Both the position numbers and the translations under genes were made by a program. This document shows, one piece after another, positions 4,458-64,000 of a stretch of 64,000 bases of DNA. The DNA is from a bacterium (GTDB taxonomy: Bacteria; Patescibacteriota; Minisyncoccia; Phycocordibacterales; Zambryskibacteraceae), in the NCBI GenBank assembly GCA_030649135.1, contig JAUSGI010000002.1:1-64000 (forward strand), read 5' to 3'. Each line of letters begins with the position of its first letter. Position 1 is the first letter of the stretch. The notes under the pieces are model-generated. The model was not told where the DNA came from. It saw only the letters and a list, made by a program, of their open reading frames with translations, and searched no databases.

Positions 4458-4976
4458 TTATAAACCTATATATTTAAAGCTCTTAAGTCTAAAAATACCG
4501 AAAGCTCTACCTTTTATGTGCCACCTATCTATAAATCCCAGTTCGCGTGAATCTATACTGACATCTCTATTATCTCCAAGTATAAAATACTCCTCCGGAT
4601 CAAGCTTAGATTGGGTTACACCTATAAGCAACTCAAGATCGTCTATAAGATAATCTTCCTCAAGGGTAATGCCTGGATCAAGACGATTAGTCCTTATCAC
4701 TACTTGGTCTTCCTCGATACTGAAACGCTCTCCCGGTAAAACAATTATTCTTTTAATAACTTTGAATGATTCCCCTCTAGGAATAGCGACCACAATATCC
4801 CCGCGTTTTGGGTCTTTGTATAAATAAGCAAGTTTATTTATAAAAACATAATCACCGGAGAGGATGGTGGGCGACATTGAATCTCCGTTAACAATAAACC
4901 CTTCCAATGCAAATAGACGAACCAGAAGTGCCAAAGCAAACGCCACCAGAAATACTGATAAAATTTTCGTTTTCAT
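4458..4976 (-). CDS. lepB: Signal peptidase I (S26 family)
   Basis: N-terminal TM segment; GDSMSPT Ser box; KRIIVLPGE and GDNRDVSIDSR motifs. Confidence 0.9.
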   Translation of the reverse strand: MKTKILSVFLVAFALALLVRLFALEGFIVNGDSMSPTILSGDYVFINKLAYLYKDPKRGDIVVAIPRGESFKVIKRIIVLPGERFSIEEDQVVIRTNRLDPGITLEEDYLIDDLELLIGVTQSKLDPEEYFILGDNRDVSIDSRELGFIDRWHIKGRAFGIFRLKSFKYIGL

Positions 4977-5014
4977 CCTTACTTGTATATTGTAGCATAT
5001 ATGATAAATTATGA

Positions 5015-5257
5015 ATGTTTATGGCAGAAATCTATTTTTCTATTAAAGAGGCGGCCGAGATTCTGGGAGTATCTCCTTTAACTTTACGCAACTGGGATAA
5101 GTCCGGTAAGTTCCCGGCCCAAAGGCATCCGATGAACAACTACCGAGTTTACAGACTTTCAGCTCTGGAAAATATTGTCAATGATATTGAAGGTGGCACA
5201 AACAAAAGTAACGCAGAGAAACGTATTAAAAAACTAATGATTAGGCACGAGGAGTAA
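5015..5257 (+). CDS. Small MerR/excisionase-family (HTH_17) DNA-binding protein
   Basis: FSIKEAAEILGVSPLTLRNWDKSGKFPAQRHPMNNYRVYR is a textbook HTH_17 signature. Confidence 0.75.
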   Translation: MFMAEIYFSIKEAAEILGVSPLTLRNWDKSGKFPAQRHPMNNYRVYRLSALENIVNDIEGGTNKSNAEKRIKKLMIRHEE

Positions 5258-16447: not shown

Positions 16448-17080
16448 ATGGACAATTTTAAAAATACTCGCGCTGTCGTTGTGTACCTAAGTAAGTATAT
16501 ATCGGGCAAAACTCTTGACTATGGCGCTGGCTCTGCCAAATATAGAAACCTGATTGCTCCACAGACGAGCGAATACATAACCTTTGATATGGTTCCCGGA
16601 GAATACATTGATGTGGTAGGAGATGCCCTCAAACCCCCTTTTCCTGACAACTCTTTTGATACCGTCATCTCCACTCAAATGCTGGAACATGTAGAAAAGC
16701 CATGGGTAGTGGCAAGCGAAATAAGACGCATCCTGAAGCCAGGTGGTATCTGTATACTCACAGCGCCCTTTTGGGTCCCTTATCACGCTGACCCTCACGA
16801 CTATTTTCGCTACACCAAAGAAGGATTAGAAAGTTTATTTAAAAATGAGGGCTTTGAAATAGAGGTGAGCGGTAATTACGGAAAACCCCCATCTGTCCTG
16901 GGAGAAATGATTCATTTCTCCTTTTTTAGCCCTTATGATGTTGTCTCTCAAAGAAAAGCAAGATGGCGCTCAAGAATAATGCGTTTCATACAATCGTTAA
17001 CCTATAAGCTAGACACTCTCTCTAAAAACAAGGTTGTTTACGCTAACGCTTATGTGGTCGCAAGAAAATCCTCCAGTTGA
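16448..17080 (+). CDS. Class I SAM-dependent methyltransferase
   Basis: LDYGAGS motif I; FDTVISTQMLEHV; LKPGGICILT (Methyltransf_11-like). Confidence 0.8.
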   Translation: MDNFKNTRAVVVYLSKYISGKTLDYGAGSAKYRNLIAPQTSEYITFDMVPGEYIDVVGDALKPPFPDNSFDTVISTQMLEHVEKPWVVASEIRRILKPGGICILTAPFWVPYHADPHDYFRYTKEGLESLFKNEGFEIEVSGNYGKPPSVLGEMIHFSFFSPYDVVSQRKARWRSRIMRFIQSLTYKLDTLSKNKVVYANAYVVARKSSS

Positions 17081-18756
17081 TCCACGACCCATTTACTCCC
17101 ATTCTGATATGGGTCGCCAAAGTATCGTTCTCGCAATTCTTTGATGTTATCCTCTGATATTTGGGGAATATTTTTTATTCTTTTAATAAGCTCACCAGGA
17201 TTCTCAGCAAATAACGGACTCCCTGTCCCATAATCCTTCATGTTAAAGCAATCTCCCCATTTATCTGTCTTAAAGAAAATAGGTATCTTAAACTCTAATA
17301 AGGCCTCCAACACTGCTGTACTATGAGAACCAACAGCGGCATCACATTCTTTGACGGCGTCAGTGATACTACCCCTCAAGATTTTGAGATTTTTGTCTTC
17401 TAATATTTCTGGTTCATTGGCTAAAAGCCACTCTTCAAATCCATCTTTGGTTGGCCTAAACTTTATGCTCAATTCAATTTCACGATTATTTAATAATTCA
17501 TTTAGGTAAGGCAATACCTCATAAGGCGCGGCCAATTGTTCCGAAATAAAAAGTACTTTAACGGGCCCTTGGTTGCTTTGCCCTGGGTTTGTCGAAGGGT
17601 TGGTTTGCTTTTCTAATGGCCTCATCGGACCTGATACGTAGAGCTGTTCCGGAAGATAGGCTCTGCTATTTGTAATATAATATTCCTTCCACCAGTCGCT
17701 CCAGAGACCATATTTATCGGTGGTTAAAATTTTTTCTCCATCAAATCCAGGCATAAAATCATACACATTATAATATTTAGAAGGGGCACCATGCAGAAGG
17801 CCAACAGTCGGAACATTGTTCAATTTACACCCTAGGACAGCATGGAAATTTCGTTCCAAGGCCACCGGGAAAAACGCCGACTTCACGCCAATGACCCGCA
17901 AAATCCATTTCATAATCCGGATAGCCCACATATCATTATAGACATTAAGAAGATGATGGGTGGCCACCAAAATCTTAAACTGTTTTTGTGGATCTCTTTC
18001 TATTTGCTTACTGATCTGATGACGGCTCCCCAAGATGAAGCTTAGGAACTTACCAACGAAAGCCACCGCTTCTGAGTAAATGACTGGACGCCCCCTGGTA
18101 AGAAAATGCTCTAAAATTGTTTTCCCAGACTCTAGACTTCTAATGAATTCAACAAAGGGGAGATTCCGGTCACGCAATTCCCTGTAGACAAATTCCATTC
18201 TAAAATCGTAGTCTTTAGTCTTTTCGAATTTATCGCCGGTAAAAACCAGTATTCGTCGTCTTTGAAATATAAGAAATGGCAGAGACAAGAGGGTCAGAAT
18301 TATTTGAAGAAGAATGCCAAGAGGTAGAATAGCTAGACTTTTAAAACCAGGTTTATTGAGCACGCTCATCTCACATCCATAAGCAGATAGATAGTGGGCA
18401 AAAAGACTTTTATATGGGGGGTTGTAAAAATACACCTGCCGAAAATCCCCTAAATACGAAAGAAGTTTTTTATATTGTGTGTATGGAAGACAAAAGTAGG
18501 TAGAGAGACTATTGTAATGTATCCACCATAATTCATAGCCCTCGTAAATAAAAGATTTGGCGATGCGCGTCCCGTCTGGAAACTTGAGATACGAAAGCTC
18601 TTTGGCAAACTGACTAGCTTCATAAATACTTCCGGGTCCAATAAATTTATTGAGCTCTTCACCAGAAAGCACCATATCGTAGGAACGTAGATCCCCTTTC
18701 GGCATCTCTTCGCCAAAAACTACTAAAATTGATTTATTTTTCATTTCTATAACCAT
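17050..18756 (-). CDS. Large soluble glycosyl/glycerophosphotransferase-like protein. It could be TagF/CDP-glycerol glycerophosphotransferase-like or KpsC/KpsS (Capsule_synth)-like.
   Basis: About 565 aa; C-terminal AVGSHSTAVLEALLEFKIPIFF resembles GT-B nucleotide-sugar-binding domains. The track's start at 18951 runs through a GC-rich hairpin and gives a nonsense N-terminus; a start near 18756/18744 (MVIEMKNK or MKNKSILVV) is likelier. Confidence 0.4.
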   Translation of the reverse strand: MVIEMKNKSILVVFGEEMPKGDLRSYDMVLSGEELNKFIGPGSIYEASQFAKELSYLKFPDGTRIAKSFIYEGYELWWIHYNSLSTYFCLPYTQYKKLLSYLGDFRQVYFYNPPYKSLFAHYLSAYGCEMSVLNKPGFKSLAILPLGILLQIILTLLSLPFLIFQRRRILVFTGDKFEKTKDYDFRMEFVYRELRDRNLPFVEFIRSLESGKTILEHFLTRGRPVIYSEAVAFVGKFLSFILGSRHQISKQIERDPQKQFKILVATHHLLNVYNDMWAIRIMKWILRVIGVKSAFFPVALERNFHAVLGCKLNNVPTVGLLHGAPSKYYNVYDFMPGFDGEKILTTDKYGLWSDWWKEYYITNSRAYLPEQLYVSGPMRPLEKQTNPSTNPGQSNQGPVKVLFISEQLAAPYEVLPYLNELLNNREIELSIKFRPTKDGFEEWLLANEPEILEDKNLKILRGSITDAVKECDAAVGSHSTAVLEALLEFKIPIFFKTDKWGDCFNMKDYGTGSPLFAENPGELIKRIKNIPQISEDNIKELRERYFGDPYQNGSKWVVDQLEDFLATT

Positions 18757-18760
18757 ATCA

Positions 18761-18800
18761 TATAGGAAAAGGGCCGGCCGCGATGTACTGCGGCCGGCCC
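18761..18800 (-). terminator. Strong GC hairpin terminator downstream of the GC-rich gene 18809..19243
   Basis: gggccggccgc-gatgtact-gcggccggccc is a perfect 11-bp stem, followed on the minus strand by ttttcc. Confidence 0.65.
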
Positions 18801-18808
18801 AGGTTAGA

Positions 18809-19243
18809 TCAGGCGTCCGGGTCGATGGCGTTGGGGCGGTATTCGAACCGCCAGATGGTGACGAGGTTGTCGTCACCGAACGGCTTGTTGTAGATGCCCG
18901 CCAGGTGATTCTTGACCTCCTCCTGGCTCGTGATGTCCGGGGACATACCACGGAGGTCCTCCGCCGTCAGCTCGCTGATCTTCTTCACCAGATACTCGGT
19001 GACCTCGACGTTGGTCCCGTCATCTGGGAAGAACTTGGCCGCCACGCCTCGGGCCTGGTCGCCAGGCACCTCGATGTAGCGCACGAGGATATTGGTGAAC
19101 CGCGGGATGCCGGTGGGCTTGGTCGGGTCGGAGCGATCACCGGGTCTCACGACCGAGGTGATCGTCTGATCTTTGAAGCCCTGCATGTGCTCCACTCGGA
19201 CCCAGAGTCCGGGCTGGCCATACTCCACGTTTCGATCCAGCAT
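18809..19243 (-). CDS. Hypothetical protein encoded on a GC-rich (~60%) island
   Basis: Clean 144-aa ORF (MLDRNVEYGQPGLWVRVEHMQGF...). Its composition contrasts sharply with the ~40% GC flanks. No recognisable motifs. Confidence 0.45.
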   Translation of the reverse strand: MLDRNVEYGQPGLWVRVEHMQGFKDQTITSVVRPGDRSDPTKPTGIPRFTNILVRYIEVPGDQARGVAAKFFPDDGTNVEVTEYLVKKISELTAEDLRGMSPDITSQEEVKNHLAGIYNKPFGDDNLVTIWRFEYRPNAIDPDA

Positions 19244-26850: not shown

Positions 26851-28063
26851 ATATAGCAATAAGCTTAGCTATTTGAACATTTAAATTGAAGTTTGTTTTG
26901 ATTCTATCTAAACCAGCTTTACCAAATCTTTCTGCTTTTTCAGGATGGTTGATTAAATCAAGCATTTTTTCTGCCACTTCTTTTGTATGGAAAGGATTAA
27001 CCACATATCCAGTGATACCATCCTCAATGATTTCCGGCGCTCCCCCATAGCAAGTGCCCACCACCGGTTTGGCGCAGGCCATCGCCTCAAGCACGATTCT
27101 GGGGAAAGAATCGAAGATAATTGATGGCACCAAGACAAGGTCGGCACAGGCATAAGCAGATTTTATCTCGTCCCTTTCTATCCAACCAGTAAAAATTAGT
27201 CTACCCCCTATTCCCAACTTGTCTGCCGCCTCTTTCATGCTGGCGGCATACCCCTCCATTTTACCCGCAACCAGGAGTACTACATTATCTACTTCCTTCT
27301 CAAGCTCTGCCATCACTTCAAGTGCCTTTCCCCCGCCTTTAGCCTCACTTAACCGCCCACCGAACAATATTACTTTTTTATTTGTTAGATTATACTTTTC
27401 TCTAAATTGGGCTACTTCTTCTCCACTCGTGCGCCACAAATTCACATCAGCTCCGAAATACATCACTTCTACATTTACAATACCATTTTGTTCAAGAGCT
27501 TTTTTTAAGGCACCGCTTACTGCAAAAATTTTGTCCGCGTGTTTGAGATACTTTCTAATGAATAAATTACGAAGGGGATTCCACCTTTTTCTCGCCTGTT
27601 TCAGATGGTCAAACCAAGTTGTATGGGCATCAAAATTTTCCAAATACCGCTTGGTGTGTAGTTTCCCATAATTAAAAGACATGACATCATGAGCAGTCAA
27701 AACCACTACTTTGCTAAACCGCTTCGCAATCACCAGAGTATGGTAAGAGAGGTAGAAGTGAATGTTGTGGGCATGCACTACATCCGGCTTAATGTTCTTA
27801 AGAAGTTTTGCCACTTGGCGTACAACTGGAGGATTGTACAGACCAAGATAGGAACGCCATCTGGTGGAATAATTGCTGGTAATTTTCCAAACTTTTATAC
27901 CATGGTATTCCGATACTCCCGCCTCATCTCTATTTCTACACGTAGTGATCACATAAATCTCGTGACCCATCCTTTTCATGGCGATGGCAAAATCATATGC
28001 GACAATCCCCGCCCCCCCAAAGCTCTGTGGCGGAAAATCGTCTGAAAGAAAGACTATTCTCAT
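26834..28063 (-). CDS. Glycosyltransferase family 4 (GT-B, retaining)
   Basis: MRIVFLSDDFPPQSFGGAGI N-terminus; EGYAASMKEAADKLGI... PRIVLEAMACAKPVVGT (E-x7-E region). Confidence 0.85.
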   Translation of the reverse strand: MRIVFLSDDFPPQSFGGAGIVAYDFAIAMKRMGHEIYVITTCRNRDEAGVSEYHGIKVWKITSNYSTRWRSYLGLYNPPVVRQVAKLLKNIKPDVVHAHNIHFYLSYHTLVIAKRFSKVVVLTAHDVMSFNYGKLHTKRYLENFDAHTTWFDHLKQARKRWNPLRNLFIRKYLKHADKIFAVSGALKKALEQNGIVNVEVMYFGADVNLWRTSGEEVAQFREKYNLTNKKVILFGGRLSEAKGGGKALEVMAELEKEVDNVVLLVAGKMEGYAASMKEAADKLGIGGRLIFTGWIERDEIKSAYACADLVLVPSIIFDSFPRIVLEAMACAKPVVGTCYGGAPEIIEDGITGYVVNPFHTKEVAEKMLDLINHPEKAERFGKAGLDRIKTNFNLNVQIAKLIAIYETLY

Positions 28064-29808
28064 ATTTTACGGTAAATGGCTATATCATCGAATTCGGCCA
28101 CTTTAGTTAGGAATTTGTATTTATCCAAATTCCAGAGAGGGTCACTCTTTTTATCCCAAACAAGATACGCCACTTCGTACTTAGTCCAGAGATTCTTTAA
28201 CCATTCCGCCGCGGGTAGAGAAAGCGTTTTTTTATAGGAAAGAGCAATTTCTCTGATTTTCTCATCGGGAAACGCCTCATGTGAACCAAAAAGCTCCCGA
28301 TAATGAATCCCGTAAGCCTCAAAAGAAACTTTCTCGCGATCCTTGAGAAACGCATCTTCTACTTCTTTACTGTCCACACCAGCAAGCCTATAAAACGAAA
28401 ACATGGTATTAAGCTGACGCGCATAGGTAGCGGATAGGGAGGCAAATGAAGTTGACCGATGGTAAAAAACATTCAGAGGAGTGTAGATAACAGTTATATG
28501 AGAAATCTCGTCATTGGCAAAGACAACAGACTCCTTCTCTGCATTCAGATTGAGCCATTTCATAACCGGCCCATATCTCTGACGCCCAATGAGAACCGTG
28601 CCCCCATCACCCATATCATGAGAATAGGAGTAAGCCTGGACATAAATACCTGTCGTGACACTTGTCACGATAATGAGAACGGCCAAAGCCTTCTTGTAGA
28701 AATCCAGCTTCCAACGAGCAAGCAGGTAGAAAATCACTATGAGCATAAAAATAATAGCCATCGGTTTGTGGAAAAACCAGTGGTAATGCGGCGCTTCAAG
28801 CACTTTGCCCGTGAAAAGCTGTTGATTCAGTGTGACAAAAGGGGTTAAGAGTAAAGCTAAACCAAAAAAATACTTTTCCCTATCCCCTTTCGGGAAACCT
28901 AAGAAAAAAATGATTAGGGCAACAATCACTCCCCAACCAACGAACAAGGGCGCATGGGTTAGAAGTACACCAATATTTGAACTAACTTCATTGTATGCGG
29001 GAAATTGGGTAACTCGGTATAGATTGATAACATAAGGGGTGGCCACCAAAAATGCGCCTAAAAATACGCTGGATATTCTTACCGCCTCTCGCCATTTTTT
29101 CTGGATGAGAAGCAGCAAAACCAAAACGCCGCCAAAAGAATATAGGTACGTCCATGTGTAAAAATAGTTATAAAAATTCAAACCTAAGAGAATGGCGCTA
29201 ATAACACCGTACTGCCACTTCCGTTTGCGATAGAACAACCAAAAGGCGATTAGGAAGGCAAAAAGAAAAAAGTAGATCATAGCGGGATTCACCGGCTTGG
29301 AGAGCCGTAAAAAATTTTCGTAACTAACGCCGTGGAAGAATAACTGAACAAGGCCGGATTTGCTCAAAATAGAATCCGCCAGTAAATTTACTGCCGCACC
29401 GCAAAGGGCGACCAACTTATCTTTAGATAACAAAAAGACAAAGCCGTAAATTAAAAGGAAAACAATAAACGAGAGCACAAACCGAGATAACAAGAAGGTA
29501 TTATTGATATCAAGGGAGAATATTTCCCCCATGTAGGCCACCACCATTGACCCCAGTGGCTGCAGGAGATACGGGTTATCCTTACCATCTTTTTGATAGA
29601 TATTGCCGAAATTGGGGTGTCCATCTTGTACTTCCCGGGCTCGCGCCGACCAGGGAGAATCGGGCAACAACTCTATGCCTTGATAAATACCGTCATTTCT
29701 ATGTTCAAGACGGAAATAAACCTGCGGTGAAGCCGCAATCACGGAGGTAAGTACAGCCAAAGCAATGGCCACCCGATGTTCACGGAGTATTTGTTTAAAC
29801 TGATTCAT
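28060..29808 (-). CDS. GT-C-like polytopic membrane glycosyltransferase candidate; paralog of 40666..42372
   Basis: About 12 TM helices followed by a ~200-aa C-terminal soluble domain. Shares its architecture and the C-terminal motifs FANDEISHITVIYTPL and KYEVAYLVWDKKSDP with the 40666 gene. Confidence 0.5.
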   Translation of the reverse strand: MNQFKQILREHRVAIALAVLTSVIAASPQVYFRLEHRNDGIYQGIELLPDSPWSARAREVQDGHPNFGNIYQKDGKDNPYLLQPLGSMVVAYMGEIFSLDINNTFLLSRFVLSFIVFLLIYGFVFLLSKDKLVALCGAAVNLLADSILSKSGLVQLFFHGVSYENFLRLSKPVNPAMIYFFLFAFLIAFWLFYRKRKWQYGVISAILLGLNFYNYFYTWTYLYSFGGVLVLLLLIQKKWREAVRISSVFLGAFLVATPYVINLYRVTQFPAYNEVSSNIGVLLTHAPLFVGWGVIVALIIFFLGFPKGDREKYFFGLALLLTPFVTLNQQLFTGKVLEAPHYHWFFHKPMAIIFMLIVIFYLLARWKLDFYKKALAVLIIVTSVTTGIYVQAYSYSHDMGDGGTVLIGRQRYGPVMKWLNLNAEKESVVFANDEISHITVIYTPLNVFYHRSTSFASLSATYARQLNTMFSFYRLAGVDSKEVEDAFLKDREKVSFEAYGIHYRELFGSHEAFPDEKIREIALSYKKTLSLPAAEWLKNLWTKYEVAYLVWDKKSDPLWNLDKYKFLTKVAEFDDIAIYRKI

Positions 29809-40626: not shown

Positions 40627-40667
40627 ATGGCGACCGCAGTAATACACGCGGTCGCCATTTTCACTTT
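40627..40667 (+). terminator. Rho-independent terminator of the GC-rich gene 39845..40603
   Basis: atggcgaccgc-agtaatacac-gcggtcgccat is an 11-bp stem, followed by ttttcacttt. Confidence 0.7.
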
Positions 40668-42372
40668 AGAGAGGCAGGGACAAAATCACAAATCTCCCGT
40701 CATCATACAGGGCCTTGTTTAAAGAGATGCGCTCAAGATTATCGTGAGCACGATCGAGGATGAGATATTTAACGTTAAATTGTTGGAGGAGGGTGGCTTG
40801 ATCTTTTTTGACGGTCTTAAAACGCTCTACCAGCGTTTTGAAATATTCTTCCCCGCGGAGAGTAATCGAATCGGTACGTGGCGGACATTGGCGAGGACCA
40901 GCAAAACGCACCCAAACATCGCAGAGCCAGGCGCGCCGGTTTTGAGCTAGAGGCTCTAGTTCTGACGGCCCGGCGCCAGCGTAAAGCCCTAGACCACTCT
41001 TTATGTCTTCGATCGTCAAAACATCCATGCTATGCGAGACGAGATATCTATCCTCAAGTTCGGGCCCAGAAATATTATGAAGTACCGTACCTTCTGTAAA
41101 GAGTGGGTAGTGCCGAGTCATAATCGGTATATATTCCGAAATTGAATCGTTCGCCCAAATCACAGATTGTTCTGGCACATTTTTATCTAGCCATTTTAGC
41201 GGGCCAGCATAGGTCTGTAGATCGGCGGTATAATCACTACCACGTTCACCAAAAAACTTGAAAAAATCTAGCCCATGAGGAAGGTTTCTCACCACTCCTA
41301 CCGAGAGTATTGAGAGAAGAATCGCTACTACTATGTATTTGGTTCTGTGGGTTTTTAAAGTTTCTGAGAAATACCATTCATACAAACCGACTCCTAAAAT
41401 TATCACCATCCATAAAATGACAAAACGTCCGACATGCACGCCAAGAGTCAGTTCGACGCCAGTAATGATATTTAAACACAAGCTAACGAAGAGTGCCGCA
41501 CCTGTCGAGAACCAAAATACTTTTTGTTTTAAAGGCACCAGCCATGTCAAAAGCATTCCGACTGCCAACCAACGACCATAGAAAAAAACTTCTATCGATG
41601 GAACGCGAGTGTAAACAAGACCAATGCGACTAAGGGTTTCAAAGTAATAAGGGCCCTGCATCTGCATCAAGGTATAGAAACCGAAAGGGATAAGGAGGAG
41701 TGCGGTAAAAATACCGCAGGTCAGAAGCGAGCGTAACTCTTGGAAACGTCTGGTAAACAAAAACCAGAAAAAAATAAAGGCAAAACTTAACAAGACAATA
41801 TAAGAAAGATACGAGTAGACATAAAAGGCAGAAGCCGCAGCGAGCGAAAGCCAAACTATCCTCTTTCTCTCATGCGGCTCGTACAAGAACTTCAGAAGGG
41901 CAATGAGAAACATGAGAAAGAAAGGATAAACTATCTGCATAATGGTCGGCCGAAGCATGAGTGAATATAAACTGATATAGAGAAACACCGACCACAGGAA
42001 TGCCCACCCTCTCGGCAAACGCAAGAGCCGGAGCAGGGTAAAGGACAGAGCTAAAAATACAAAACTCCACGCGAACATATTAATCATAACGGCGAGATTA
42101 AACGGCACCCCAAGAAGCATTGGAATCGCTGAGACAATATCCGGCAAGAAAAACGCTGGAGCCAAATCCTTGCGGTATTCATAGACATACGGATTGCCGA
42201 GGAGCGGGTATCCATCCACCACTTCATGCATGCGCGCATAGTAATACAAACTGTCGGTAGAACCTCTGGGTAAGACGCCCTGCCAGTTTCGCCATCCCCC
42301 AACTTCGTATATGACAAAAATTGCTGGAATTAGTGTGGCCACCAAAGCGACGGCTAGGAACAATTTCTTCAT
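40666..42372 (-). CDS. GT-C-like polytopic membrane glycosyltransferase candidate; paralog of 28060..29808
   Basis: About 12 TM helices plus a C-terminal soluble domain with WANDSISEYIPIMTRHYPLF and QFNVKYLILDRAHD, which match motifs in the 28060 gene. Confidence 0.5.
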   Translation of the reverse strand: MKKLFLAVALVATLIPAIFVIYEVGGWRNWQGVLPRGSTDSLYYYARMHEVVDGYPLLGNPYVYEYRKDLAPAFFLPDIVSAIPMLLGVPFNLAVMINMFAWSFVFLALSFTLLRLLRLPRGWAFLWSVFLYISLYSLMLRPTIMQIVYPFFLMFLIALLKFLYEPHERKRIVWLSLAAASAFYVYSYLSYIVLLSFAFIFFWFLFTRRFQELRSLLTCGIFTALLLIPFGFYTLMQMQGPYYFETLSRIGLVYTRVPSIEVFFYGRWLAVGMLLTWLVPLKQKVFWFSTGAALFVSLCLNIITGVELTLGVHVGRFVILWMVIILGVGLYEWYFSETLKTHRTKYIVVAILLSILSVGVVRNLPHGLDFFKFFGERGSDYTADLQTYAGPLKWLDKNVPEQSVIWANDSISEYIPIMTRHYPLFTEGTVLHNISGPELEDRYLVSHSMDVLTIEDIKSGLGLYAGAGPSELEPLAQNRRAWLCDVWVRFAGPRQCPPRTDSITLRGEEYFKTLVERFKTVKKDQATLLQQFNVKYLILDRAHDNLERISLNKALYDDGRFVILSLPL

Positions 42373-57184: not shown

Positions 57185-57529
57185 GTGGAGGGCCTTGTGA
57201 AATACGATTTGAGCCTGTTTTTTGTCGATTCTACAGCCCCCTTCAAGTGTTGCTCAAATCGTAATTCAATATCATTAGTATACCCGACATAAAAATTTCC
57301 ATCTTTTTGACTCTGTAGAACATAGACGTAGAATTTTTCATCAAATACAGACATGATATTGAATTATTTCACTGGGCAAGTCCAACGATGGAAAAAACCC
57401 AAAATAGGGTCACTTTTATCGACTTTCTGGGTGATCACCAGCAGTTTCATTGGATTTCCTCGCTCCTATTTTCTTATATGCGGAAGGTTAAACCTTGCGT
57501 ATTGGTCTTACTTCCATCATAATTCTAGT

Positions 57530-58195
57530 ATGACACGCCCAATTATATTATCAATCGGAGAATTTTATCACATTTATAATCGTGGCACTGAAAAAAGAAA
57601 GATTTTTTTATCCAAACATGACTACGAACGTTTTATAGCTCTTCTCTATCTTTGTAACTCCACTATCTCCGTCCGTATAGACATGCGACGCAAATCTTTA
57701 GATGAAACCCTCGATACTGACCGTGATAAGAATCTGGTAGATATTGGTAGCTACTGTTTAATGCCCAACCACTTTCATATTCTACTTAAAGAAAGAGTTG
57801 AAAATGGTATTAGCCTATTTATGCAAAAATTAACTACGGCTTATACTATGTATTTCAATAAAAAATACGAACGTAACGGATCTCTTTTCCAAGGAACTTT
57901 TAAGGCAGAGCATGCGGATAAAGACAGTTACTTGAAATATCTATTCGCATATATTCACTTAAATCCAGTCAAACTGATTGAACCCGAATGGAAGAAGGTG
58001 GGTATCAAAAACCGCACAAATGCTAAGCAGTTTCTGAGAAATTACCCTTATTCTAGTTATTTTGAATATACCGGAATCGACAGAAAATGGAAGACTATTC
58101 TAACGCCTAAGGCGTTTCCAGACTATTTTGATACTACCGATGGCTTTCAGAAAATGATTGATTACTGGCTTGAGTTTAGTTCTGAACAATCCTAG
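57530..58195 (+). mobile_element. IS200-like/REP-associated tyrosine transposase (Y1 HUH) gene, copy 1
   Basis: YHIYNRG, the HUH motif CLMPNHFHILLK, GSLFQGTFK and the catalytic-Tyr region YLFAYIHLNP. Flanked by AAGGTT-A/T-AACCTT palindromes (57485-57499; 58206-58220) and a 33-bp direct repeat (57408-57440; 58228-58260). The track's longer N-terminus (57353) reads as junk. Confidence 0.75.
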
Positions 58196-58266: not shown

Positions 58267-59550
58267 TCATTGAGTTGGTGTGTCTGGGGTCTTTTCCGCA
58301 TTTTCAGTTTGCTCTTCTTTTTTCATAAGTTCAAATGCTTGGCCGAGATATCTCAATACATGGTGCCCGACAAGATAATGGAATAGGAGGCCAACCAGTC
58401 CGGCAAGAATGACGAGCAAGAGGAGATAAACGAGATTGTCTTTGATAAATTTGCTAATAAGCGATGACGACGAGACTGCCGCTGTGACATCTCTGATATT
58501 GCCGGCCTTATCGAAGACTCGCACCATAACGTTTAAGTCGCCGCGAGCGAGCGGTATCTGAAAAGGACTCTCCGTTTGGACAAAAACGGGGGAGACGGTA
58601 ACTGGTTGGCTTTTATCAATTATTCCGACCTCATAATAATCCACTCCCGACAGATTATCCGTAGTAAAGAAAGAGATTATCGACCGTTCGACCAAATTCA
58701 CCGCTGCCAACAAATAACTAACTTCCGGTTTGAAGTCTGCCGGCGGGACAGTGTCAATTCTTATCAGAAAATGCCCAGTCGTCCCCCAGACTCCATTTTT
58801 ATTGGCTTTAATATGAAAATACCATAAGCCATCGGCCAAACTTTCAAACGCTTCTGAAGTCTCGTTGGCAGTAATGGAGTTCTCTGGGATTGTGGATGGT
58901 TTATCATCCAAAATATAACTAAATCCCGAAACGCCGGCATCCCGATCCCATGAGATTACCGGACTGTCATTGTTGTACCACTCACCCTGGAACGGATGGG
59001 TCTCCGAGAAGACCTTCACCCCTTCCGGAGCCTTCGGCACAATCGCATATTCCGCCCTGCCCAACTCTACTTCGGCTTCCGTACCTTGGCCATCATTCAA
59101 GAGTACTTTTGAATTAGCGCCAAAAGAGACCGTTGCCCAGCCAGTCCTCTTGGCTTTAAAAGTGATTGTCCCCACTAAACCGGAGTTCGTAGTAATACCG
59201 TCCGGTATGACACCGACATAACTGGCCGTACCGCGAGTGTTATCGTAACTTGGCGGTTCCACCCAGACACCGATAATAGAGAGGCCGCTCGACGGTTTTA
59301 TGATTTCCAGCTTATCTTTGTCGAAGTTAACCCTGATTTCAATACCATTGATTTCGGCGCCGTCTGTATCGACTAGAATCGGGATATTGAAGGTTGAGTT
59401 CTCGACAAAGCTGGCGGCACGGGGAGAGAATGAAAGTTCGATTTTCGGAATTAATTGCGAGACATCCAGAGAGACTGTCTCGGCGTATGTATGAGACCAG
59501 ATGAGAGCCGTGAGAACAAACAGTAGAAGTATTCTTGAAATACGTGCCAT
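58267..59550 (-). CDS. Cohesin-domain surface protein with signal peptide and C-terminal TM anchor
   Basis: Signal peptide MARISRILLLFVLTALIWSHTYA. The N-terminal ~140-aa beta domain parallels the next gene (SVGDTFSV... LSF... LQV pattern). A second beta module resembles the 60489 gene. C-terminal TM helix LVYLLLLVILAGLVGLLF followed by a charged tail. Confidence 0.6.
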   Translation of the reverse strand: MARISRILLLFVLTALIWSHTYAETVSLDVSQLIPKIELSFSPRAASFVENSTFNIPILVDTDGAEINGIEIRVNFDKDKLEIIKPSSGLSIIGVWVEPPSYDNTRGTASYVGVIPDGITTNSGLVGTITFKAKRTGWATVSFGANSKVLLNDGQGTEAEVELGRAEYAIVPKAPEGVKVFSETHPFQGEWYNNDSPVISWDRDAGVSGFSYILDDKPSTIPENSITANETSEAFESLADGLWYFHIKANKNGVWGTTGHFLIRIDTVPPADFKPEVSYLLAAVNLVERSIISFFTTDNLSGVDYYEVGIIDKSQPVTVSPVFVQTESPFQIPLARGDLNVMVRVFDKAGNIRDVTAAVSSSSLISKFIKDNLVYLLLLVILAGLVGLLFHYLVGHHVLRYLGQAFELMKKEEQTENAEKTPDTPTQ

Positions 59551-59559
59551 TATTATTAT

Positions 59560-60537
59560 CTAATCCCCGAGATCCTTCTCAGCGTGGACAACTTCCTGAT
59601 GGATGATTTTTTCAGCATCTGCCAAGTTCTGCTTTAGGCGATGCGTGATTGTCTCTTCTTCCGCGGTTAGCTTCCGTTTATCGCGGGTCCGCTCCAAAAT
59701 ATGGAGGCTATCACCGACATCCTCTTTCAGAAGTTCAAAAGATTTTCCCGTCAATCGGTCTATATTATGCAGGTCTTTCCTCATATCCTTCCGCAATCTC
59801 GATACATTGCCCGCCCCCTTCGCGGCAGTATGAGTGAGAAGGAATATAAGCGCGACAATGAGAGCGAGCAGGAAGAATAACGCCAGAAGCCAGCTTATGG
59901 CAGTTTTAAGCGACGGGGTGCCAAATGGAAGAGTGTCCGCTTCTTCCTCCTTATCAAGCGTTCCAAGATCAATGGCGGGTGCTAAATTGTCTTCTCCATC
60001 TGTACCATTAGTCTCGAGCACTGCTGGCGGAGTGACGGGAAGTTGCTGCTTTTGCTCCAGCGCAAACGAGGCAGTGCCGAGGGTCTTAAGAATATTGGTG
60101 CCATAGCCATCGTTGGCAAGAAGTGAACCCGATGTCAAGCGAATGAGGGCGTTACCCGTACCGACTACCTTAAAATTGACACCCAAAACCCTGCCGTTAG
60201 ATTCGCTAAAGCCGGGGTTAGGCACCACGCCCTCGAAAGTCACCGTGCCGCGAGAGTTGGAAAATGACGGTTCCTGGATCCAGAGCGATAGCACCGACCC
60301 AATCTTCGATATGGAAGTCACCTGCAGACTGTCCGCCGGGAATGACAGCACGCCGGAAACGGCATTGATGGACTGCTGGGGACTTGAGACCATGATGCGC
60401 ACCGAGAACGTATCCCCGACGGAGTACGTCCCAGTTAAGGGAGAGAGAAAAATAGTATCGGCAAAAACGCTCTTCGGTGATACGAGGACTAAAAGAATCG
60501 TGAGCGTAAAGAGCGCCTTAAGAGTAAAAGAACGCAT
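59560..60537 (-). CDS. Cohesin-domain surface protein with signal peptide, TM anchor and cytoplasmic tail
   Basis: TIFLSPLTGTYSVGDTFSVRIMVSSPQQSINAVSGVLSFPADSLQVTSI is the cohesin-like signature seen in many small-genome bacteria; TM helix ISWLLALFFLLALIVALIFLL. Confidence 0.6.
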   Translation of the reverse strand: MRSFTLKALFTLTILLVLVSPKSVFADTIFLSPLTGTYSVGDTFSVRIMVSSPQQSINAVSGVLSFPADSLQVTSISKIGSVLSLWIQEPSFSNSRGTVTFEGVVPNPGFSESNGRVLGVNFKVVGTGNALIRLTSGSLLANDGYGTNILKTLGTASFALEQKQQLPVTPPAVLETNGTDGEDNLAPAIDLGTLDKEEEADTLPFGTPSLKTAISWLLALFFLLALIVALIFLLTHTAAKGAGNVSRLRKDMRKDLHNIDRLTGKSFELLKEDVGDSLHILERTRDKRKLTAEEETITHRLKQNLADAEKIIHQEVVHAEKDLGD

Positions 60538-61238
60538 AACAATATTATAATACTAATCAAAACACTTGCATAATGGTATGGACCAGCTGTGGATGCATCT
60601 CTATGATTACCTGCCTTATCCACCGCGCGAATGTGTATCTTCTGGAAAGTCTCTAGGTGCGATAAAACTAAGGGTGATTCTGTTTCTATCCAATTTTCAT
60701 CTCTAGGACTAAGAAACCAAGTGGAAGCCGCCTCGTAGCGCTCGACGCCCGTGCCCTTGTCTTGAGCGGTAAACGAAATGAAATGTCTGCCGCCAAAAAT
60801 ATCCGGCGATGTTGATATTATAGGCTCAAAAGGTTCCGGTGGTACCGTATCTTCGGCTATTTCCGTTTGTCGTAAAGAGAGCCTGACCGAAACGCTTTCT
60901 CCGGAACCGTCATTTTTATATGCTTTTATGTTGTTGAAAGAGAAGCCGGCAATATTTGAAGCGTCAAAAGCAAAAAGCCGATATTTCCCCCTAAATCCGC
61001 CCGGTGTTATACCGGCAAACGGGATGGTATTTCCAAGCAGCTCCGGCGAGGTAACCCAGATAAGAACGGCTGAATTGCCGGTATAGATATTTTCCACGCT
61101 TACATTTGTTGGCAAAACTAAAGTTCCCTCAATGGCATTGATTGTTTCTGTACCCGTATCAACTTCAATCACGGCAGTAACTGCTCCAGCAAAGAGTGGT
61201 AGAGAAAAGAGAATGATTATGATAAGAATTTTTCTCAT
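60489..61238 (-). CDS. Secreted membrane-anchored module protein related to the C-terminal half of 58267..59550
   Basis: Signal peptide; ISFTAQDKGTGVERYEAA, TESPLVLS and IRAVDKAGNHRD parallel ISFFTTDNLSGVDYYEVG, TESPFQIP and VRVFDKAGNIRD; C-terminal TM helix. Confidence 0.55.
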   Translation of the reverse strand: MRKILIIIILFSLPLFAGAVTAVIEVDTGTETINAIEGTLVLPTNVSVENIYTGNSAVLIWVTSPELLGNTIPFAGITPGGFRGKYRLFAFDASNIAGFSFNNIKAYKNDGSGESVSVRLSLRQTEIAEDTVPPEPFEPIISTSPDIFGGRHFISFTAQDKGTGVERYEAASTWFLSPRDENWIETESPLVLSHLETFQKIHIRAVDKAGNHRDASTAGPYHYASVLISIIILLCVLLLLRRSLRSRFF

Positions 61239-61239
61239 A

Positions 61240-62580
61240 CTAGCCAGTCCAATTAAACGCCATTATAGAGAAGTCTACGAGATTGACCTTGCCATCGCCA
61301 TTGATATCAGCACTCTTGGGCGGAGCTGGCCTATTATACCAATAGGCAACAATGGAAAAGTCCACGAGGTTGACACGGCAATCGGCGTTCGCATCTCCTC
61401 GTTTATCGCACTTTTGGGGAGTTTTGGCAAAAAGAATACTGATGTTGCCGACAACGAAAGGCACTGCCAGGCTGTACGGGCTTATCTCATTTGCTTTAGC
61501 AGCTTTCGACTTGGTGCTATGGTCGCCATACTCGAGTGGTGTAGTATCAAAGTTGTAGAGATATATCCCGTTCACATCTGCCGGAGTTTTGGCGAAGAAC
61601 TGCTGGTCGGAATTTATTTGTATTGTTACTTCGCTTTGGTGAGCTACCTGACCGAATATGGTAATGTCATCCCCTTTTCTCACTTGCGATTTATCCACAG
61701 CCACAGTCGGCGCTATGAATATGCCGGTAATATCGGTGGTCACTCCTGCGGTTACGCTCACCGGGAATGTCAATAAAGATGACCTATTACCTTGATTGTC
61801 CTCGCTATATATGGAAAAGAAATAATTGCCGGCAGTCAGATTGGTAAGTGATGCCTGGAAATTGGACGTGGCGTCAGCAATTGTTGTGGCAGACACTTGG
61901 GCATCTTTAAGGATAGTGATGGGTCTTCTCGGATATGCTCGGCCGGAGAAATTGACCCCGCCTGTAGCATAGGTCGTCACGCCTCCTCCACCACCACCAC
62001 CACCCCCACCACCTCCGCCTCCTCCGCCATCATCATCGTCGTCAACCGGTGCGGTGGGGGTAGCGGAAACCTCGGTAGAAGTGGCAATGGTATTATCCAG
62101 AGCATCCAAAACCCTGACAACGAAGTAATATGTGGTGCCGGCAGTAAGCCCCGTGCGCGTGGAAGCAAGTACGTCACCAACATCTGTATAAGTATATGCA
62201 CCGCCGGCAGTAGTGGACTGACCCACCGAATATCCTCCTACCGCCCAGCCAGTCGAGGCATCCGCGGTCGTCCAAGTGAGTGACACTTGCTCGGCACCGG
62301 CGGTGGCCGTCACGGCAGGAGTGGAAACAAACGGAAAATAAAGAAAGCCACCAAAAAGTTGATAGAGACTGTTGGTGGTTGAAGTGCCAATCGCCATTTG
62401 GGAAATGACTGCGTTTAGTCTGAAACTAGTGGAAGTAGAGTATCCGCCGGAAAATAACACGGGGTTAGAGACCGTATAAGTATCGGAAGAAAAATCCTGC
62501 GCATAGGCGGCGTTGACGGTGAGAAAAAATAGAAAACATAAACTTAGAAGCGTTAGAAATCGTACTTGTGGAAAAAACAT
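61240..62580 (-). CDS. Secreted dockerin-containing protein with FN3/Ig-like domains and an Asp5-Gly16 linker
   Basis: Signal peptide. The C-terminus carries two Ca-binding dockerin repeats, DANADCRVNLVDFSIVA and DINGDGKVNLVDFSIMA. An in-frame (GGN)16 tract at 61985-62040 encodes the flexible linker. Confidence 0.65.
   Translation of the reverse strand: MFFPQVRFLTLLSLCFLFFLTVNAAYAQDFSSDTYTVSNPVLFSGGYSTSTSFRLNAVISQMAIGTSTTNSLYQLFGGFLYFPFVSTPAVTATAGAEQVSLTWTTADASTGWAVGGYSVGQSTTAGGAYTYTDVGDVLASTRTGLTAGTTYYFVVRVLDALDNTIATSTEVSATPTAPVDDDDDGGGGGGGGGGGGGGGGVTTYATGGVNFSGRAYPRRPITILKDAQVSATTIADATSNFQASLTNLTAGNYFFSIYSEDNQGNRSSLLTFPVSVTAGVTTDITGIFIAPTVAVDKSQVRKGDDITIFGQVAHQSEVTIQINSDQQFFAKTPADVNGIYLYNFDTTPLEYGDHSTKSKAAKANEISPYSLAVPFVVGNISILFAKTPQKCDKRGDANADCRVNLVDFSIVAYWYNRPAPPKSADINGDGKVNLVDFSIMAFNWTG
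61985..62040 (-). repeat. In-frame trinucleotide (GGN)n/(GAY)n simple-sequence tract encoding D5G16
   Basis: cctccaccaccaccaccacccccaccacctccgcctcctccgccatcatcatcgtcgtc on the plus strand. Confidence 0.8.
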
Positions 62581-62691
62581 ACTAAGTAATTATACAACAT
62601 AGTAACTGTGCAGAATATATAGTACCGAGTACTGAAAGCCGAGAGCTTTAGACTCTCACTAATACTGTATACTTATAGATATCTCCCAAAC

Positions 62692-63360
62692 ATGAGAAAG
62701 GAACCTATCATAACAAACCATTATTATCACATTTATAATCGAGGAGTGGATAAGCGTGACATATTTAGCGATATAAAAGACCTTAAACGTTTTAAAGAAA
62801 GTGTAAAACAGTTCAATCAAGTCGATGGCATAGGTAGCCTGGAACTATATCGCAAATCCGTGAGAGCTTTAGGCTCTCACTTTGAATTGAAATCGAAACC
62901 GATTGTGGATATTGTCGCCTTCTGCATAAATCCTAATCATTTTCATTTTATCTTAAAACAACTGGAGGACGGCGGAATAGCAAAATTCATGCAGAAATTA
63001 CTCGGTGGATACACATATTACTTTAATCAGAGACATGCACGTTCTGGTTCATTATTTCAAGGAACATTCAAGTCTAAACTAATCAACCACGATGACTATT
63101 TTAGAAAAATATTTGCGTATGTAAACCAAAATTATTCTGTTCATAACATACCAAAAAATAAATCAATTTTTATTTTTGCAAGCAATACAGAATACGAGAG
63201 TGGGCATTTTGATTTTGTTTCTAAAATCGAAGGACAGGAAATGTTAAAAATTTTTGGTGGAAAAAATAATCTTAAAAAACACTGCGAAGAAATTATATCT
63301 ATTATTCGAAAAGAACGTGGCAAAACTTCTCTAGAAGAACCAGACGAACTGCCTATGTGA
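62692..63360 (+). mobile_element. IS200-like/REP-associated tyrosine transposase (Y1 HUH) gene, copy 2
   Basis: YHIYNRG, HUH motif INPNHFHFILK, GSLFQGTFK, FAYVNQNY. Flanked by hairpins GAGAGCTTTAGACTCTCAC (62640-62658) and GTGAGAGCCTAAAGCTCTCAC (63360-63380). The latter is the exact reverse complement of an internal copy at 62867-62887. Confidence 0.75.
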
Positions 63361-63394
63361 GTGAGAGCCTAAAGCTCTCACTAAACAAACGATC

Positions 63395-63925
63395 TTATAG
63401 GAAGAGCCAGGTTTTTATTATAGGAGAAAGCCAGGATTCTTGCTCACGAAGAGCGGTCACTTCATAGAGAAATCCCTTATGGACAAACCAGACTTCCCAA
63501 GTCTCACCGAGCTTAACACTCTTGCTATAGAAAGACGTGGCGAGCACGCCATCAAGATAAAAAGTGGAGGGATTCTGTTTGATGCCGGACGGCACGTCCA
63601 GCAAGAAACGCTTATCACTTATCTTTTCCTCGCCATAGGGAACCACAAAAATCTGGAAACCCATTTTTTCGTCTTTATTTTCAAAAATAAAAGTCTTTGC
63701 CCCATCACCCTCATCGAACTCTCTTGCAATTGTGCCTGCCGGATAGAGCAGGGAGAAAATGTATCGTTCGCTTCGATATTCGTGCCACCCATCGGGCACG
63801 TCTCGCACGGCACCCGCTGTCCTGTTCTCGTCGTCTCCACCACGCTTTTCCGGTAAATAAAAAAATGCTCCGACAATAAGCCCGAGGGTTATAACAATAC
63901 CGACCACAATGCTTGTGTATTTCAT
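63395..63925 (-). CDS. Hypothetical membrane-anchored protein
   Basis: N-terminal TM helix (YTSIVVGIVITLGLIVGAFFYL) followed by a ~150-aa soluble domain. No motif recognised. Confidence 0.45.
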   Translation of the reverse strand: MKYTSIVVGIVITLGLIVGAFFYLPEKRGGDDENRTAGAVRDVPDGWHEYRSERYIFSLLYPAGTIAREFDEGDGAKTFIFENKDEKMGFQIFVVPYGEEKISDKRFLLDVPSGIKQNPSTFYLDGVLATSFYSKSVKLGETWEVWFVHKGFLYEVTALREQESWLSPIIKTWLFL

Positions 63926-64000
63926 ACTTTTACACATATAATTATATCACCGCACACCTTGGCACGAAACGGTGATATACTTTAAGAGAGTGGGTGGGTG

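Follow-up and report, generated by a model that had tools for sequence, protein, structure and literature searches.

The operon and its four products

In a 64,000-nt stretch of a patescibacterial genome (positions 1 to 64,000 of contig JAUSGI010000002.1, assembly GCA_030649135.1, GTDB family Zambryskibacteraceae), referred to as the window in the following, four co-directional open reading frames (ORFs) on the minus strand occupy positions 58267-62580 and are transcribed in the order P1, P2, P3, P4. The first gene, P1 (61240-62580, 446 aa), encodes a protein that ends in a dockerin; P2 (60489-61238, 249 aa) encodes a short membrane-anchored cohesin-like protein, delineated by its ORF and the family alignment; P3 (59560-60537, 325 aa) a cohesin followed by a linker, a transmembrane (TM) helix and a helical cytoplasmic tail; and P4 (58267-59550, 427 aa), the last gene, a cohesin followed by an FN3-like domain, an Ig-like domain and a TM helix. 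All four genes were also called independently on a Logan assembly contig of SRR13727527. P1 and P2 are separated by 1 nt, P3 and P4 by 9 nt, and P2 and P3 overlap by 49 nt, an overlap that had been pointed out in a first-pass annotation of the sequence, agrees with both the ORFs and the independent gene call, and recurs in three orthologous loci (46, 22 and 4 nt). By this tight packing, P1-P4 constitute one operon. Judged by domain assignment, the set is made up of three cohesin paralogues and one dockerin; the first-pass annotation had listed two TM-anchored cohesin-like proteins, and the anchors and the cohesin identity of P3 and P4 hold, but the count rises to three with P2.

According to hydropathy analysis, all four proteins have signal-like N-terminal segments, and a C-terminal hydrophobic anchor is present in P2, P3 and P4 only. 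For the latter three, this predicts a type-I membrane topology in which most of the protein lies outside the cell. P1 combines the N-terminal hydrophobic signal-like segment with the lack of a C-terminal anchor and is therefore predicted to be secreted. The features described below for the four proteins are all encoded on the minus strand.

The dockerin of P1 (residues 392-446; 61243-61407) consists of two 22-residue calcium loop/helix repeats together with a covarying cysteine pair. Residues 395-440 match the Pfam family Dockerin_1 (PF00404) with 32.0 bits against a cut-off of 22.9, and the same family is precomputed for many orthologues. The two calcium loops, DANADCRVNLVD and DINGDGKVNLVD, lie 29 residues apart within the last 55 residues, and each comprises 12 residues of the pattern D-x-N-x-D-x-x-x-N-x-x-D, with Asp or Asn at positions 1, 3, 5 and 9 and Asp at position 12. 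They are the sole loop pair of this kind among all ORFs of the window, and the loop positions are conserved in an alignment of 50 orthologues. In the AlphaFold2 (AF2) model, a helix follows each loop (residues 405-413 and 434-442) with a predicted local distance difference test score (pLDDT) above 90. A whole-chain Foldseek search was uninformative with regard to the dockerin because strings of FN3 and Ig domains dominate the matches. The C-terminal 60 aa were searched by sequence instead and aligned along both repeats with the type-I dockerin structures 5nrm_B (E 2.8e-5) and 2y3n_B (E 8e-4); further matches were CelS and the dockerin region of Amy12 from Ruminococcus bromii. The tandem calcium-binding pair that the first-pass annotation had recognized on the gene adjacent to the cohesin genes is thus borne out by the presence of both strings, the Pfam score and the helix pair, and the EF-hand-like nature of the repeats, for which a structure prediction had been proposed as a check, is supported by the modelled helices and the matches to solved type-I dockerins. 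On this basis, the C-terminal repeats of P1 are a bona fide type-I-like dockerin by sequence, with predicted calcium dependence.

Both repeats carry Leu10, Val11, Ala17 and Tyr/Phe18, residues at positions that we take to be the usual cohesin-contacting positions of dockerins, and the module is nearly symmetrical, as is typical of dual-binding type-I dockerins. Of the two cysteines, one is located just before loop 1 and the other inside it. Scoring was possible for 49 of the 50 sequences in the P1 alignment: 32 have both cysteines, 17 have neither and none has a single one, a perfect covariation that is characteristic of a disulfide bond within a folded extracellular domain. More than 2400 homologues of P1 were found, the best 120 of which are 50-78% identical and several of which are named 'dockerin type I repeat-containing protein'.

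The remainder of P1 has the appearance of a fibre. An N-terminal module of about 60 residues (residues 28-86; 62323-62499) is built from three S-x-S/N-F-like strands followed by the motif GFLYFP. It is conserved in the P1 alignment, has a pLDDT below 50 in the AF2 model and yields a hidden Markov model (HMM) that matches P1 orthologues only; nothing credible was retrieved for it from Pfam. An FN3 domain follows (residues ~88-175; 62056-62319), as indicated by a weak Pfam fn3 match, a beta-sandwich in the AF2 model and FN3-dominated Foldseek matches, and is connected by a flexible Asp/Gly-rich linker (DDDDGGGG...; 61966-62055; pLDDT below 50), the Gly run of which is kept in orthologues, to two Ig-like domains (residues ~206-290 and 295-380; 61441-61965) that are confidently modelled as beta-sandwiches. 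The Ig-like region matches Big_6 with 23.7 bits, which is below the cut-off, and PF17936 is precomputed for many orthologues. Neither Pfam nor the AF2 model nor Foldseek revealed a catalytic or carbohydrate-binding module (CBM) in P1. Within the linker DNA, an imperfect 9-nt periodic repeat (61980-62035) encodes about 16 Gly codons after DDDD, and the length of the Gly run differs among P1 orthologues; the hinge of the fibre thus seems prone to changes in length by slippage.

Among the cohesin proteins, P4 is the one that is recognized directly by Pfam (Cohesin, PF00963; 27.3 bits versus a cut-off of 24.1). Its cohesin domain (residues 35-172; 59035-59448) sits on a stalk of an FN3-like (residues 175-266) and an Ig-like domain (residues 272-360; together 58471-59028), assigned from AF2 secondary structure with weak Big_3_2 and OmpL47-type matches, and is followed by a TM helix and a short cytoplasmic tail with the motif HYLVGHH (58270-58461; hydropathy and family alignment). 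The AF2 model (mean pLDDT 83) shows all of these elements, including a long TM helix, and the domain comprising residues 35-172 is a nine-stranded flattened beta-sandwich (jelly-roll) like that of solved cohesins, so that the fold check proposed for the cohesin-like domains has a positive outcome for P4. The top Foldseek match of the model is 2w1n, a cohesin+FN3 double module. Identity to known cohesins is low (12-20% in the structural matches), and when the P4 family profile was compared with Protein Data Bank sequences, the best match was a cohesin, albeit a non-significant one (E 0.08). At the inner end of the TM helix, H391, Y392, G395, H396 and H397 are near-invariant, and an HMM of this C-terminal region is found in 85 of 90 P4 ORFs; the short tail has weak similarity to the beginning of that of P3.

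The cohesin domain of P3 (residues 28-160; 60058-60456) was identified by its similarity to that of P4 (32% identity, E 8e-20) and by HMM cross-matches. The name 'cohesin domain-containing protein' is given to an NCBI entry that is 100% identical to P3, and PF00963 is found in several P3 orthologues. The domain is followed by a TM helix (residues ~213-236; 59830-59901; hydropathy maximum 3.18) and a charged helical cytoplasmic tail of 85-90 residues (residues 237-325; 59563-59829) that is conserved in the family alignment. An HMM of the tail is found in 60 of 75 orthologues, most of the others retain a TM helix and a charged tail that ends in the same motif, and a Pfam search with the tail gave nothing credible. 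Taken together, the conserved P3 tail and the juxtamembrane motif of P4 indicate that a complex of these proteins probably has a cytoplasmic face.

In P2, a cohesin-like domain (residues ~20-125; 60864-61181) was detected by hhalign and by shared signature residues: the N-terminal domain of the P2 family aligns with the P3 cohesin at 99.6% probability (E 5e-25), and P2 aligns with P4 over cohesin plus Ig domain at 99.9% (E 1.6e-32). The Ig-like (OmpL47/Big-type) domain of P2 (60579-60857) is homologous to the membrane-proximal domain of P4, as seen from an HMM cross-match; it scores 26.6 bits with NCBIfam NF047446, below the cut-off. The first-pass annotation had already noted that this third gene shares a module with the C-terminal half of P4, and both BLASTP (30% identity, E 8e-9) and profile comparison agree with it. 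A C-terminal TM anchor, conserved in position within the family and succeeded by RRSLRSRFF, completes the protein (60510-60569; hydropathy). In a library of 1.84 billion proteins, the P2 family accounts for 2741 cluster representatives. Across all three cohesin paralogues, a common signature is apparent (N68, S91, W96, P100, G113, P116, G118 and N152-D-G-x-G156 in P4 numbering). Most of its residues are located in predicted strands 3, 5 and 6 and in the 8-9 loop, and each paralogue adds conserved residues of its own on these strands. The canonical dockerin-binding sheet of cohesins is formed by strands 8-3-6-5; as the strands were assigned from predicted secondary structure, the mapping of the shared residues to the putative dockerin-binding face is no more than suggestive.

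Distribution and gene order of related loci

In order to place the operon in a wider context, one genome per GTDB species was scanned with two strict P4 motifs, which yielded 157 relatives; 80 loci were kept and analyzed with HMMs for the four families. P1-P2-P3-P4 are colinear in 61 of 81 non-redundant loci at 45-75% identity, and the window shows the same order and architecture. When only those loci are considered that extend at least 3.6 kb upstream, 48 of 55 are colinear, and in most of the other seven the genes are adjacent but rearranged. Nearly all of the related loci stem from metagenome-assembled genomes (MAGs) of the Parcubacteria/Paceibacteria type, and among MAGs that bear the names of Zambryski-, Wolfe-, Pace- and Parcubacteria, P4 homologues show 57-74% identity. 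One locus with the operon, L069, belongs to a Minisyncoccia MAG. Going by how the closest homologues are named, the organism of the window is likewise one of the Parcubacteria-type Patescibacteria. The flanking genes vary from locus to locus. Of all the evidence at hand, this conserved and portable synteny argues most strongly for a joint function of the four proteins.

The dockerin is similarly confined. Across 84 loci of about 15 kb, the dockerin HMM detects P1 only, apart from one additional 847-aa dockerin ORF upstream of P1 in a single locus (L013), and in the 64-kb window the modules of the cohesin/dockerin set are restricted to the P1-P4 ORFs. The set had been called self-contained and minimal in the first-pass annotation, which is correct for the window and the ~15-kb neighbourhoods but does not extend to whole genomes.

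Several loci depart from the common arrangement. Additional full-length P4-type ORFs occur as three tandem copies in L034, as two copies in L042 and L049, and with one on each side of P1-P3 in L070; apparent P4 pairs in L074 and L077 look like a single split P4 ORF. The order is P1-P4-P2-P3 in L063 and L081, P4 is divergent from P3-P2-P1 in L057 and L083, and L080 has no separate P3 and an unusually long P4 ORF. In a Zambryskibacteria orthologous operon (L002), a small GIY-YIG nuclease ORF (4875-5138 of that locus) is inserted between P1 and P2.

A predicted surface assembly and its alternatives

On the domain identities, topology signals, operon packing and conserved synteny described above we base a model in which we infer dockerin-cohesin binding, the partner cohesin, the stoichiometry and the biological role. 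We consider it probable, on balance, that the operon builds a calcium-dependent cohesin-dockerin complex on the cell surface of Patescibacteria of the Parcubacteria/Paceibacteria type. After removal of their signal peptides, P2, P3 and P4 would each be held by the C-terminal TM helix in the cytoplasmic membrane of a single-membrane cell, with the cohesins at the membrane-distal tips and at different heights, carried by one Ig domain in P2, by the FN3-like and Ig-like domains in P4 and by a flexible linker in P3. P1 would be secreted, and its calcium-loaded dockerin would dock onto one or more of the three cohesins; from this platform, P1 would then extend outward with its Ig/FN3 rod and N-terminal module. 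Conservation of the TM segments, and of the cytoplasmic tail of P3, hints at a single membrane complex of all three anchors that may also contact a component inside the cell. The product would be a non-enzymatic surface fibre or envelope scaffold that serves attachment or envelope organization and not a polysaccharide-degrading cellulosome. The first-pass annotation had likewise favoured surface display or attachment over degradation. The dockerin, the membrane anchors, the lack of glycoside hydrolases (GHs) among the neighbours examined and the fact that the genes travel together all agree with that view, the last being strong indirect support for a functional unit; however, the lineage-wide conservation and the conserved P3 tail point to a core envelope complex instead of an occasional display device. 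Very high conservation also favours a structural envelope part, or a fibre with a conserved target, over a host-specific adhesin.

A number of findings weigh against this model. Mirror-tree comparisons of the dockerin with the cohesins over 42 loci gave weak correlations (r 0.32 for P2, 0.31 for P3 and 0.16 for P4; partial r 0.17, 0.11 and -0.19, respectively), and a control with the Ig domain of P1 performed as well or better (r 0.39, partial 0.245). Neither P2 nor P3 of the window reaches the Pfam Cohesin family, P3 being without any Pfam match at all. The cohesin-like domain of P2 in the lineage of the window is devoid of the first strands that are present in longer family members, and this N-terminally shortened domain may be unable to bind. 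For the binding face, strands were numbered on predicted secondary structure and not by superposition, sequence conservation (55-75%) is unusually high for an adhesin that tracks varying hosts, and further dockerin proteins may be encoded elsewhere in the genome. Should binding fail, what is left of the finding would be a conserved but unexplained operon whose domains are correctly annotated.

Some of these observations would be accommodated by a different scenario, in which the cohesin-like proteins assemble among themselves into a complex of the membrane or envelope, such as a scaffold that organizes wall or glycan and is tied to the neighbouring surface-glycan genes, their beta-sandwiches acting as spacers or binding a non-dockerin target, and in which the P1 dockerin binds something else or is simply a calcium-stabilized terminal module. 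That the mirror-tree signal is weakest for P4, the best-conserved cohesin, is in line with this scenario, as are the shortened P2 domain of the window, the very high conservation, which fits a housekeeping envelope part, and the glycan-biosynthesis genes that adjoin the operon in the window and in its closest relative. This glycan neighbourhood is not kept in other loci, however, whereas P1 is nearly always encoded directly upstream of the three cohesin genes and carries the only dockerin of those neighbourhoods. Moreover, cohesins whose structures were solved together with dockerins have the same fold, and the most conserved shared residues map, by predicted strand assignment, to the canonical binding sheet. 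We therefore regard an assembly of the cohesin proteins without the dockerin as unlikely. Low identity to known cohesins (just 12-20%) and a P4 profile match that is not significant on its own (E 0.08) could even be taken as signs of a chance resemblance, with generic beta-sandwiches lying beside a generic EF-hand-like repeat; P1 and P4 both exceed the respective Pfam cut-offs, the C-terminus of P1 matches solved type-I dockerins, its cysteine pair covaries and the gene order is kept in most loci, the modelled P4 fold is that of solved cohesins, and we consider this explanation effectively refuted.

Cohesin-dockerin systems are best known for enzyme display, and P2-P4 could accordingly be imagined as the anchors of a system akin to a cellulosome or amylosome, in which they hold dockerin-bearing enzymes encoded elsewhere and P1 is one of many ligands or an adaptor. 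The 847-aa dockerin ORF just upstream of P1 in L013 fits such a role. It is, however, the one extra dockerin ORF in 84 loci of ~15 kb, P1 itself is free of recognizable catalytic or carbohydrate-binding modules, and none of the ~35 window proteins examined is a GH, which agrees with the first-pass annotation; reduced genomes of this kind generally encode few GHs anyway. Dockerins on carbohydrate-active enzymes were not encountered: P1 consists of FN3 and Ig domains plus its N-terminal module. Instead of a multi-cohesin scaffoldin with a CBM, there is one cohesin each in P2, P3 and P4 and no CBM match, and searches of P1-P4 for S-layer homology (SLH) domains or an LPXTG (sortase) signal had no matches, anchoring being provided by C-terminal TM helices. 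Enzyme display in the manner of a cellulosome was consequently rejected, and we hold the broader notion of enzyme capture by P2-P4 to be quite improbable.

What the locus does display are cohesins and a dockerin on non-enzymatic proteins that are encoded close together, as in non-cellulosomal gene sets. Peer et al. are said to have surveyed non-cellulosomal cohesin-dockerin pairs in 2009. In the absence of enzymes, the closest known system is the non-cellulosomal pair of Archaeoglobus fulgidus (cohesin structure 2xdh), which has been used as a binding pair (PMC9705933) and is also mentioned elsewhere (PMC12484212). The operon described here differs from it by three TM-anchored cohesin paralogues, one of which has a conserved cytoplasmic tail, by a dockerin that is borne on an Ig/FN3 fibre and by the conservation of four genes across a large uncultivated lineage; it is known from genes, and binding is predicted. 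With the anchoring scaffoldins of Clostridium thermocellum and relatives (OlpA, OlpC and SdbA type) it would share the principle that a single type-I-like cohesin on a surface protein captures a dockerin partner. C. thermocellum-type cohesins (3ul4, 4dh2, 1ohz) are among the best structural matches, and the two near-symmetrical repeats of P1 resemble dual-binding type-I dockerins. Here, in contrast, the anchor is a TM helix and not an SLH domain or sortase signal, no CBM, primary multi-cohesin scaffoldin or dockerin-borne enzyme was found, and both P1 repeats have Leu-Val at positions 10 and 11, where C. thermocellum dockerins have Ser-Thr.

The arrangement of cohesin and FN3 modules is most closely matched in Clostridium perfringens, with the cohesin-FN3 module of GH84C/NagJ and the cohesin-dockerin pairs of its toxin complexes (2w1n, 2o4e, 2vo8), where the modules reside on secreted glycoside hydrolases or toxins, whereas here they are found on membrane-anchored, enzyme-free proteins. 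The amylosome of R. bromii (PMC4611034) is another case of a cohesin-dockerin assembly repurposed away from cellulose, with the difference that its dockerins are attached to GH13 amylases and none is attached to an enzyme here. Within the Patescibacteria, SEML1_0315 of the saccharibacterium Southlakia epibionticum is an envelope protein that has been described as dockerin-containing and was scored essential by transposon sequencing (Wang et al. 2023, PMC10633639). Compared by description, it resembles P1 as a patescibacterial envelope protein of Ig/FN3-type domains without an enzyme, but it is a 927-aa stand-alone gene product with unrelated neighbours and without adjacent cohesin genes. We have therefore rejected it as a direct link to P1 and treat it as a loose precedent only; by analogy, it can be a precedent for such proteins being vital in Patescibacteria.

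A full-text literature search on cohesins or dockerins in combination with Parcubacteria or the candidate phyla radiation (CPR) did not return a description of this cluster. NCBI already carries automatic domain annotations for the individual proteins; what is new is an enzyme-free cohesin-dockerin operon with three TM-anchored paralogues that is conserved in a major uncultivated lineage. Patescibacteria/CPR account for a large share of bacterial diversity and most of them are thought to live attached to other cells, and their envelope and attachment molecules are largely uncharted. The operon is a concrete candidate for such an envelope or attachment structure, and one that is experimentally tractable, with small and soluble domains that lend themselves to expression. 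It would extend the known uses of cohesin-dockerin pairs by a three-paralogue TM platform with a conserved cytoplasmic tail and may supply orthogonal binding pairs for protein engineering.

A more far-reaching proposal, which we put forward tentatively and regard as possible but rather doubtful, is that P1-P4 represent a hitherto undescribed, lineage-defining envelope organelle of Parcubacteria/Paceibacteria, in which a heteromeric TM platform with three cohesins is coupled to the cytoplasm via the P3 tail and carries a dockerin-tipped Ig/FN3 fibre, the conserved N-terminal module of which contacts a conserved target. If this were true, that target would lie either in the wall or glycan layer of the cell itself or in some trait common to all host surfaces, cohesin-dockerin chemistry would be a core assembly principle of a housekeeping surface structure in ultra-small episymbiotic bacteria, and the structure might correspond to surface appendages seen on such cells by cryo-electron microscopy.

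Genomic surroundings

The rest of the window contains housekeeping genes (GatB, Obg, SecA) and, directly downstream of the operon, a run of about 45 kb for surface-glycan biosynthesis (~12393-57184). The latter encodes a Wzy_C ligase-like protein, a Polysacc_synt flippase, glycosyltransferases of families GT1, GT4 and GT9, and DegT aminotransferases, and in addition epimerases, dehydratases, methyltransferases, a choline kinase, a radical SAM protein and an LPG_synthase_TM-methyltransferase fusion. Three minus-strand ORFs of this region, 17050-18951 (633 aa), 28060-29808 (582 aa) and 40666-42372 (568 aa), have no Pfam match at E <= 1e-5. Glycosyltransferases next to the operon are also found in the nearest relative, L002, but not in the other loci. 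An Rfam scan of the window returned zero matches.

On either side of the operon, an intergenic gene of the IS200/RAYT-like Y1 tyrosine-transposase type is located on the plus strand (57353-58195 and 62692-63360). The two are diverged, with 42% identity to each other, and are accompanied by palindromic or direct repeats (62641-62660, 62860-62881 and 63360-63381 near the one, 57403-57452/58223-58272 and 57484-57499/58203-58218 near the other). A composite transposon formed by both genes was considered and dismissed, since orthologous loci are without them and each has its own terminal repeats; on the same grounds they look like independent insertions. One 50-nt repeat lies inside the 280-aa transposase ORF, which suggests that a shorter call of 221 aa is the real gene.

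Upstream of P1 and separated from it by the RAYT-like insertion, the minus strand encodes a 180-aa TM-anchored protein (63395-63937) with a weak PsbP-like match only. It was discarded as a fifth conserved gene, its counterpart (38% identical and directly upstream of P1) being confined to L002. A different protein of ~130 aa, N-terminally TM-anchored and with the consensus ...LPxxExPTxATVSDPxxLKDQPFFAxAKxGDKVLIY..., occurs in 33 related loci, where one to four tandem copies are encoded directly upstream of P1 (e.g., L030 2890-3720, L012 780-2477 and L003 4271-4672). It is absent from the window, has no credible Pfam match and may be a fifth component. Finally, giant fibre-like surface proteins neighbour the module in 22 loci, mostly on the upstream side (e.g., L003 1-4262, L004 8469-11195 and L043 3-2279); the one in L004, which is located downstream there, contains a Peptidase_S74 chaperone-type region and a Bact_surface_Ig-like domain.

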